Below, one piece after another: positions 218 through 886 of a DNA stretch of 64,000 nucleotides. The DNA comes from Escherichia coli (GTDB lineage Bacteria; Pseudomonadota; Gammaproteobacteria; Enterobacterales; Enterobacteriaceae). The stretch lies in NCBI RefSeq assembly GCF_046105845.1, contig NZ_CP151004.1; one strand, 5' to 3'. The position numbers and the translations under genes are program-made. Positions within the stretch are counted from its first letter, which is position 1; every line of letters starts with the position of its first letter. The notes under the pieces were generated by a model, which worked only from the letters and a program-made list of their open reading frames with translations, had not been told where the DNA came from and did not search any database.

Positions 218-886
218 TTAATACTCTGAAGGCAAACGGTTGATAGCGACCAGTTTGCCTTTATTCATTTCGATATAGCCGCCTTTACGTAAAGCAGCGA
301 GAACTTCTGCGACGACAGAACGCGATATGCGTGTACGTTGATGGATATAATTCATCACACCAATACGTGAGCGCAATTCTTCATTCCAGTCAATCATTGA
401 TAATAACGTCGCGCGGATTTGTTCGTAGGAATTATGCCCAATGAGCTGCACGTCGCGTAATTCCAGAATTCTATTTTGCCAGGCTAACCAGTAAAAAGCG
501 TCTCGCCAGAGTTGATTTTGTTCAATAAGGGTAATGGTTTGTTTGGCTGGTAGATGATATCCCGTACAATTTCCTTCTGATATTAATTTGTATGGTATAT
601 CGTTTTTCATTAAACCATCAGCCAGCCCCATAATATAAGGAGCCTGGGTAATACCGATAAGTACGTTTTCTTCTCTACGCAGAGAGATAACGCCCTCTAA
701 AATAACGAAAGTATCTTCGCTATTGACATCACTGGAAAATATAACTTGCTTTTCATTATTAAACTCGAAGCGCGTACCGTATCTGGACAAACATTTATCG
801 AGCTTACCAAATTCCTGAAGAGGTTTAACTACAGATAACATTTGCGCGTCCTTTGCAGTAATGCCCGTCAAATCCTTGACGGGCAT
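218..886 (-). CDS. yaiV: Uncharacterised putative transcriptional regulator YaiV
   Basis: 222-aa ORF with ATG start at 886; convergent with ampH (stop codons abut); conserved position between ampH and yaiT. Confidence 0.75.
   Translation of the reverse strand: MPVKDLTGITAKDAQMLSVVKPLQEFGKLDKCLSRYGTRFEFNNEKQVIFSSDVNSEDTFVILEGVISLRREENVLIGITQAPYIMGLADGLMKNDIPYKLISEGNCTGYHLPAKQTITLIEQNQLWRDAFYWLAWQNRILELRDVQLIGHNSYEQIRATLLSMIDWNEELRSRIGVMNYIHQRTRISRSVVAEVLAALRKGGYIEMNKGKLVAINRLPSEY
861..886. repeat. 26-bp perfect palindrome containing the yaiV start codon
   Basis: ATGCCCGTCAA-ATCC-TTGACGGGCAT, 11/11 complementary arms. Confidence 0.5.

Follow-up and report, generated by a model that had tools for sequence, protein, structure and literature searches.

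A perfect palindrome between ehaB and iprA of Escherichia coli as a conserved RNA stem-loop, possibly a leaky terminator and leader hairpin

Introduction

Why does a perfect palindrome stand directly in front of a regulatory gene of Escherichia coli, and is it read as DNA or as RNA? We address this question for the spacer between ehaB (also named yaiT or seaB), an autotransporter adhesin gene, and iprA (yaiV), in a stretch of 64,000 nucleotides (nt) from E. coli contig NZ_CP151004.1 (assembly GCF_046105845.1), referred to here as the window. Both genes are on the − strand of the window, so that upstream means higher position numbers for each of them. A first-pass annotation, made from the letters alone, had singled out the palindrome and proposed that it could terminate yaiT transcripts, sequester the yaiV start codon, or bind a dimeric regulator such as YaiV itself.

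The locus deserves attention because little is understood of IprA (YaiV), a regulator whose loss reportedly increases resistance to hydrogen peroxide. The region upstream of its gene carries H-NS enrichment and an FNR site (PMC3688515) as well as a predicted CyuR/cysteine site (PMC11408624). The papers that report these H-NS, FNR, and CyuR sites do not mention the hairpin. A conserved element on the sense strand gives a handle on the co-transcription of iprA with ehaB (seaB), on the stability of iprA mRNA, and on post-transcriptional control, while the correct placement of the iprA start codon removes a false story of a start codon held in a hairpin.

The explanation we consider best, and to which we give about an even chance of being right, is that the palindrome reflects, at the DNA level, a conserved − strand RNA stem-loop, sense for both ehaB and iprA, which would act as a leaky terminator of the former and as a leader hairpin of the latter. 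Elements of this kind are familiar, and the present one, new and not described before, amounts to an ordinary intergenic hairpin of the terminator type that shows some unusual details.

Results and Discussion

The palindrome is non-random and present once per genome

The inverted repeat has a core at 861–886, consisting of ATGCCCGTCAA (861–871), the central ATCC, and TTGACGGGCAT (876–886), with arms that are complementary at 11 of 11 positions, as the first-pass annotation had stated. The arms extend even further, to 13 of 13 positions, with TAATGCCCGTCAA at 859–871 and TTGACGGGCATTA at 876–888 enclosing the 4-nt loop. On the iprA-sense strand this corresponds to a stem-loop at 859–888 (−) with the 5′ arm UAAUGCCCGUCAA (888–876), the loop GGAU (875–872) in the context A-A-GGA-U, and the 3′ arm UUGACGGGCAUUA (871–859), a structure defined by folding, covariation, and a covariance model. 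In K-12, its coordinates are NC_000913.3 394459–394488. The proposed check by folding energy came out in favor of a stable hairpin, with −17.6 kcal/mol for the RNA 26-mer (z = −6.3 and −7.3 against shuffles for the two strands) and −19.8 kcal/mol for the 30-mer. When the 64-kb window was simulated 100 times with a first-order Markov model, a mean of 0.05 perfect inverted repeats with arms of at least 11 nt and loops of 3–8 nt appeared per simulated sequence, and none with arms of at least 13 nt.

The palindrome occupies a single locus per E. coli genome; the two places per genome returned by BLAST are most simply explained by the palindrome matching itself on both strands. The covariance model likewise has one match in the 64 kb, at 839–896 (−) with 71 bits, and an Rfam scan of positions 1–5000 at E ≤ 10 gave nothing relevant and no known RNA family for the hairpin. 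A repetitive extragenic palindrome (REP), a bacterial interspersed mosaic element (BIME), or another repeated extragenic palindrome was rejected on account of the single locus per genome, the single match in the window, and the lack of an Rfam match.

The palindrome is genuine, far from random, and subject to purifying selection. The 44 nt at 852–895 are identical in 5373 of 5389 E. coli records, in single copy, which is on a par with the first 44 nt of the iprA coding sequence (5355 of 5389 records). The adjacent spacer at 896–939 reaches at least 99% identity in only 2147 of 5384 records, and falls to 80–90% in 541.

Pairing is conserved across genera, with a bias towards the sense RNA

A scan of species-representative genomes yielded 80 loci encoding IprA relatives, and an alignment and covariance model were built from 39 distinct orthologous leaders, on which the leader counts in this paper are based. 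Nearly all 80 loci are directly downstream of an autotransporter gene ending in ...YTW*; the seaB/ehaB–iprA synteny is also pointed out in a 2026 preprint. The model finds the element at 46 of the 80 iprA-family loci across the Enterobacteriaceae, in each case directly in front of the gene and at no other place in these loci, with representatives in Escherichia, Citrobacter, Salmonella, Raoultella, Intestinirhabdus, Trabulsiella, Kluyvera, Yokenella, Pseudocitrobacter, Phytobacter/Kosakonia, and Superficieibacter. It has no match at 34 of the 80, mostly from Enterobacter, Leclercia, and Lelliottia, and in the leaders without a match, a strong terminator immediately past the autotransporter stop codon is all that is seen. 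Spacing is also preserved: the hairpin follows the autotransporter stop by ~40–55 nt in nearly all loci, and its GC core ends 19–25 nt before the ATG in every genus.

Across the 39 leaders, 94.7% of the stem cells of the alignment can pair, compared with 34–46% in slid controls, and in 8 of the 12 stem pairs both partners have changed; not one of 500 shuffles attained any of the observed pairing measures. Variant arms that keep the stem include GCCCACCA/TGGTGGGC in Yokenella, GCTCGTCA/TGACGAGC in Kluyvera, and TCCCGCCA/TGGCGGGA in Phytobacter. A DNA palindrome that co-evolves with a dimeric protein would also account for symmetric changes taken alone, and the asymmetric changes are more informative. 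At internal stem positions, we count 16 G·U cells, distributed over four positions, on the iprA-sense strand, and 3 A·C cells, which are equivalent to G·U on the other strand. By a rough count this corresponds to at least 8–10 events versus 2, a bias that suggests, without being overwhelming, that selection acts on the sense RNA.

The iprA start codon lies outside the palindrome

According to the first-pass annotation, the palindrome includes the yaiV start codon, so that this codon and the first eight codons would be folded into a hairpin that controls translation initiation. The codon in question, ATG 886–884, is indeed within the stem, is in frame with iprA in E. coli, where it opens an open reading frame of 222 codons, and was used as the start in older annotation. 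However, current RefSeq genomes annotated by the Prokaryotic Genome Annotation Pipeline (PGAP) and the K-12 entry NP_414909.2 (394506–395129) begin the protein 45 nt downstream, at ATG 841–839, giving a coding sequence of 207 amino acids at 218–841 (−). The NCBIfam equivalog model for IprA, NF008810, agrees with this, since its profile positions 1–207 of 207 align to residues 16–222 of the long reading frame, and IprA orthologues are 207–208 amino acids long. An AAGGA Shine-Dalgarno sequence, conserved in all genera, precedes position 841 by 7–8 nt, whereas nothing comparable precedes the ATG at 886. In 27 of the 39 leaders, the stem ATG is in another frame (15), in frame but followed by a stop codon (3, namely E. 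albertii with TAG, Raoultella, and Enterobacter sp. 10-1), or absent (9), and the 15-codon N-terminal extension is accordingly not conserved among them.

Judged by these annotations and alignments, the iprA start codon is outside the palindrome, and since translation starts at 841, the palindrome belongs to the untranslated spacer. This spacer is 87 nt long and contains the entire stem, which begins 40 nt past the ehaB stop codon (931–929) and ends 17 nt ahead of the iprA ATG. The description of the element as close to the yaiT 3′ end was therefore accurate, whereas a functional start codon within the stem was not found, and sequestration of the yaiV start has become a very improbable explanation. 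A short upstream reading frame or leader peptide starting from the stem ATG was also considered and rejected, as this ATG lacks a Shine-Dalgarno sequence and is not conserved.

The hairpin resembles an intrinsic terminator that has lost most of its U-tract in Escherichia

The hairpin shares several features with intrinsic terminators: a GC-rich stem of 9–13 bp with a 4-nt loop, located ~40 nt after the stop codon of a gene on the same strand; an A-rich 5′ flank that pairs with a U-rich 3′ flank; and a canonical U-tract in orthologues of at least six genera. With 13 bp and −17.6 to −19.8 kcal/mol, the E. coli stem is stable enough for this role, but its U-tract is degenerate. The tail at 849–858 (−), CUGCAAAGGA, runs into the iprA Shine-Dalgarno sequence with its GGA at 851–849, and is U-poor in E. 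coli and U-rich in other genera. After the GC core, the E. coli sense tail AUUACUGC has 3 U in 8 nt and a T-score of 1.18, the lowest of the 39. The tail form ATTACTGC of E. coli and E. albertii, which have the first eight tail bases in common, represents the weakest class. The sense tails of distant genera have 5–7 T in 8 nt and T-scores of 2.2–4.5. A U-tract with 5–7 U follows the same hairpin in Kluyvera (UUUUUUGC, T-score 4.2, in the form GGGC-TTTTTTGC), Pseudocitrobacter (AUUUUUAC, in the form CAT-TTTTAC), Yokenella, Phytobacter (AATTTTATTTT), and Superficieibacter, and the Citrobacter tail, ATTTATTG, is intermediate. By its structure and evolution, the element is the terminator-type hairpin of the ehaB–iprA junction, whose U-tract has decayed to the present form in Escherichia. 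In the explanation that we favor, the E. coli hairpin would do no more than leakily terminate, or attenuate, transcription that reads through from ehaB into iprA.

Two further differences from ordinary intrinsic terminators concern the relation to the downstream gene. The stem sequence GCCCGTCA...TGACGGGC is kept across genera, and so is its distance of 17–22 nt to the start codon of the next gene, with an apparent promoter just upstream. This combination implies a functional tie to iprA, which is more than a plain terminator would need.

The junction as a whole consists of two tandem hairpins. A small first hairpin follows the ehaB stop codon at 910–926 (−), UUCUUC-ACUCC-GAAGAA. Its form in Escherichia, Citrobacter, and Salmonella is weak and rich in A/U, and in the latter two it apparently covaries, as judged by eye (TTCCTC..GAGGAA and ATTCCC..GGGAAT). 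In distant genera, the same position is taken by a strong, GC-rich, U-tailed terminator, as in known tandem terminators, with a freely divergent sequence, in contrast to the conserved stem of the second hairpin.

The palindrome could instead terminate transcription on the opposite (+) strand, or in both directions, and stop ampH transcripts that have passed through iprA in antisense before they enter ehaB in antisense. The + strand tail in E. coli, UUAUUUAGAUUAAAUU (TTATTTAG...), is somewhat the better of the two, with 5 U in 8 nt and a T-score of 1.82 compared to 1.18 for the sense tail; the Escherichia/Citrobacter/Salmonella clade has conserved an A-rich tract that precedes the stem on the sense strand; and the ampH and iprA stop codons abut at 217/218, which leaves no room for an ampH terminator. 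However, the wobble pairs favor the sense strand (16 cells versus 3), the antisense tails of distant genera are not U-rich (T-scores of 0.6–1.1) whereas their sense tails are, and the A-rich tract is explained equally well by an A-rich start-site region. The portion of the Term-seq tables that was searched also lists no 3′ end at 39444x–39446x. We therefore regard termination on the + strand as unlikely.

A predicted promoter places the hairpin at the start of the iprA mRNA

iprA appears to have its own sigma70 promoter just upstream of the stem. Shimada 2014 found a peak for RpoD holoenzyme by systematic evolution of ligands by exponential enrichment (SELEX) in the yaiU-to-yaiV spacer and proposed TTCACT-18-TTTAAT (PMC3946193), which places the predicted iprA promoter at 894–923 (−), with TTCACT at 923–918, an 18-nt spacer, and TTTAAT at 899–894. 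An alternative, extended −10 element, TGgTAATTT (905–897), overlaps the published one. Myers et al. reported a sigma70 peak from chromatin immunoprecipitation sequencing (ChIP-seq) at 393682 (U00096.2), with an anaerobic increase in occupancy from 82 to 509 (PMC3688515 Table S2), and this coordinate converts to approximately window position 889. The TTTAAT block, 7–9 nt from the stem, is conserved in the Escherichia/Citrobacter/Salmonella/Raoultella clade. A predicted motif for CyuR (YbaO) at 893–915 (−), GAAGAAAT(A/T)CTGGTAATTTAATC, overlaps the promoter spacer and the −10 element (PMC11408624 Table 1); it is an auto-repressor-type site, and yaiV is up 4.5 log2 with cysteine (PMC11408624).

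Given the SELEX peak, the ChIP-seq peak, and the CyuR motif just upstream, the hairpin probably also opens the iprA mRNA. From either −10 element, the predicted transcription start falls at ~891–886, at the base of the stem. With the −10 element 5–8 nt upstream of the stem, the hairpin would make up the initial ~30 nt of the iprA mRNA and immediately precede the Shine-Dalgarno sequence, and such a 5′-proximal stem-loop may protect the 5′ end of the message. A hairpin at the extreme 5′ end blocks the 5′-end-dependent decay by RNase E and RppH, and stabilizing 5′-terminal stem-loops of the type found in the ompA 5′ untranslated region were reportedly described by Emory, Bouvet, and Belasco in 1992. 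If the predicted start is correct, the iprA leader would share with these the arrangement of 0–3 unpaired nucleotides followed by a very stable hairpin. It would differ in that ompA-type stem-loops are neither derived from terminators nor abut a preceding gene, and in that the iprA start is a prediction.

A second promoter arrangement involves the predicted FNR site at 968–981 (−), GTGACGTAGATCAA, which is inside the 3′ end of ehaB (PMC3688515 Tables S5, S6). A class II FNR promoter that starts at ~933 is geometrically possible, judging from the spacing of the motifs, as the center of the FNR site would be ~41.5 bp upstream, with TTAAAT at 945–940. With a start at ~933, just before the ehaB stop codon, the hairpin would be internal to a leader of ~92 nt. 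The FNR site is partly conserved, but it overlaps the last ehaB codons (GDVDQ), so that this signal is confounded by the coding constraint and was dropped as a clue to the start site.

Two other promoter placements were rejected. In a promoter inside the hairpin, with the loop AAGGAT as −10 element and a start in the 3′ arm, the decisive A at −11 would fall on the variable N of A-N-GGA (A, C, or U); such an embedded promoter would have explained why strong terminators stand directly before the gene in other genera. An antisense promoter from the arm TTGACG has no acceptable −10 element at a spacing of 15–18 bp.

The unusual polymorphism at 896–939 includes insertions and deletions that alter the −35/−10 spacing; where one sequence has aaatactggtaa, for example, strain E69 has aaataggtaa. 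In another strain, the clinical E. coli isolate 23AR0998 (NZ_CM132249.1), the end of an IS1 insertion sequence, GGTGATGCTGCC..., abuts the sequence following window base 875, at the boundary between the palindrome loop and arm. This strain lacks ehaB, the spacer, and one of the two hairpin arms, so that its iprA has lost its native promoter and half of the hairpin.

Points against the combined explanation

Several observations weigh against the combination of leaky terminator and leader hairpin. As for termination, the E. coli tail has 1 U in 8 nt after the full stem and 3 in 8 after the GC core, so that termination in E. coli may be negligible, and a consensus terminator scan that requires at least 5 T in 8 nt flags the hairpin on neither strand. 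The consulted part of the K-12 Term-seq tables (PMC7815308) contains no 3′ end at 39443x–39451x on either strand, a weak negative because yaiT is disrupted by IS3 in K-12. Expression in K-12 is probably low, due to this disruption and to the H-NS enrichment seen by ChIP on microarrays (ChIP-chip), with which the region overlaps (PMC3688515 Table S6). The earlier suggestion of a yaiT terminator is therefore upheld with respect to the strand, the location 40 nt past the stop codon, and the U-tracts of other genera, but not by the E. coli tail, which is the weakest of 39, nor by the 3′ ends in the part of the K-12 Term-seq tables that was consulted.

As for the promoter, a scan that demands an A at position 2 of the −10 element does not return the published −10, as TTTAAT has no conserved A there. 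No measured 5′ end was found for iprA, and the part of the Cappable-seq and SMRT-Cappable-seq supplementary tables that was searched has no entry for it, a weak negative for a locus that is poorly expressed in K-12. Moreover, in genera with a strong U-tract, a promoter just upstream of the hairpin would terminate its own transcripts, and the promoter-plus-leader part may hold only for the Escherichia/Citrobacter/Salmonella clade. Finally, the explanation does not account for the conservation of the stem sequence GCCCGTCA...TGACGGGC beyond the needs of a plain terminator.

The loop could be a binding site for CsrA

The loop offers one possible source of additional constraint. It carries A-N-GGA (AAGGA, ACGGA, or AUGGA) in 25 of the 39 leaders, from Escherichia, Citrobacter, Salmonella, Raoultella, Intestinirhabdus, Superficieibacter, Phytobacter, and Kosakonia, with GGA fixed while N and the bases that follow vary. 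In the favored explanation, the loop would thus display a conserved A-N-GGA 22 nt upstream of the Shine-Dalgarno GGA. CsrA targets have a GGA in a hairpin loop and a second site over the Shine-Dalgarno sequence, at a spacing of ~10–63 nt; these features are said to go back to Dubey 2005 and Mercante 2009. The E. coli leader has the corresponding geometry, with the loop AAGGAU at 877–872 and the Shine-Dalgarno GGA at 851–849, ~22 nt apart, and the Shine-Dalgarno sequence contains GGA in every genus.

This arrangement is similar to that of CsrA-controlled leaders of the glgC, cstA, and pgaA type, and raises the possibility that a CsrA dimer bridges the two GGA motifs and represses iprA translation, a role that would be compatible with the leaky terminator and leader hairpin. 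Several points count against it. In 14 of the 39 leaders (Kluyvera, Trabulsiella, Yokenella, Pseudocitrobacter, and others), about a third, the hairpin is kept without a loop GGA; the leaders that do have it are related by descent, so that their number overstates the independent support; and the iprA stem is much longer and more stable than those of the known leaders. In addition, yaiV/iprA/b0375 is absent from the part of the E. coli CsrA crosslinking and immunoprecipitation sequencing (CLIP-seq) and integrated tables that was searched (PMC5694010), which yielded no CLIP or binding evidence for a gene that is poorly expressed under standard conditions. We consider CsrA binding possible, but with clearly less than an even chance. 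The same holds for the broader and bolder idea, which we advance only tentatively, that the hairpin regulates iprA from within the leader as an RNA element of specific sequence, bound together with the Shine-Dalgarno sequence by an RNA-binding protein for which CsrA is the obvious candidate. If it is true, IprA synthesis would be coupled to the Csr system as well as to read-through from the upstream adhesin gene, and the terminator-like form in other genera would be an ancestral or alternative state of the same switch.

A double-stranded DNA operator is improbable

The palindrome could also be read as double-stranded DNA, namely as an operator for a dimeric factor, IprA or another protein, at ~+1 to +30 of the iprA promoter. 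It is a perfect 13-4-13 repeat that is invariant in E. coli; its arm sequence itself, beyond the pairing, is unusually conserved across genera; and a position just downstream of the predicted −10 element is typical for a repressor. IprA, moreover, has a winged helix-turn-helix, matches the cyclic nucleotide monophosphate (cNMP)-binding domain weakly and below threshold, and appears in a listing of the Crp family. As a perfect inverted repeat around a 4-bp center, next to the gene of a protein so listed and near a promoter, the palindrome resembles CRP/FNR operators.

The resemblance does not extend to the details. The core GTCAA-GGAT-TTGAC, with half-sites of the form GTCAA-N4-TTGAC, is everted relative to the FNR (TTGAT-N4-ATCAA) and CRP (TGTGA-N6-TCACA) sites, and the published FNR site is located elsewhere (981–968) and is not the palindrome. 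Natural variants keep the RNA pairing through strand-biased G·U pairs that break the DNA symmetry, instead of preserving this symmetry as in CRP/FNR operators. The changes in the arms also do not track the recognition helix: the region from T170 to E179 of IprA is invariant whether the arms are standard, altered (Yokenella, Kluyvera, and Phytobacter), or, as in Enterobacter, absent together with the hairpin. Neither the E. coli genomes nor the window contain a second copy, and the U-tracts that follow the hairpin in other genera point to RNA. The earlier proposal of a site for YaiV or another dimeric regulator is thus disfavored, and we consider an operator distinctly improbable, less so only than a hairpin that encloses the start codon.

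Neighboring genes and other inverted repeats in the window

The C-terminal part of ampH is encoded by an open reading frame at 2–217 (+), convergent with iprA (−). The two stop codons abut, with the ampH TGA at 215–217 and the complement of the iprA TAA at 218–220, and each gene could accommodate a terminator only within the coding sequence of the other. On the other side of the spacer, the ehaB/yaiT autotransporter adhesin gene at 929–3892 (−) is intact and encodes 987 amino acids. K-12 MG1655 carries it only as a pseudogene that IS3 has split, so that the window does not derive from K-12; some RefSeq genomes annotate it as a pseudogene with an internal stop codon.

The longest perfect inverted repeat of the window is at 12788–12840, with arms ATATACTATAGGGGGGTAT and ATACCCCCCTATAGTATAT that are complementary at 19 of 19 positions around a 15-nt spacer. 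Others are at 31007–31048, 37213–37242, 26122–26161, and 31951–31976, and two of these four have arms of the TGTCGGATGCG/CGCATCCGACA type, which are REP-like in appearance.

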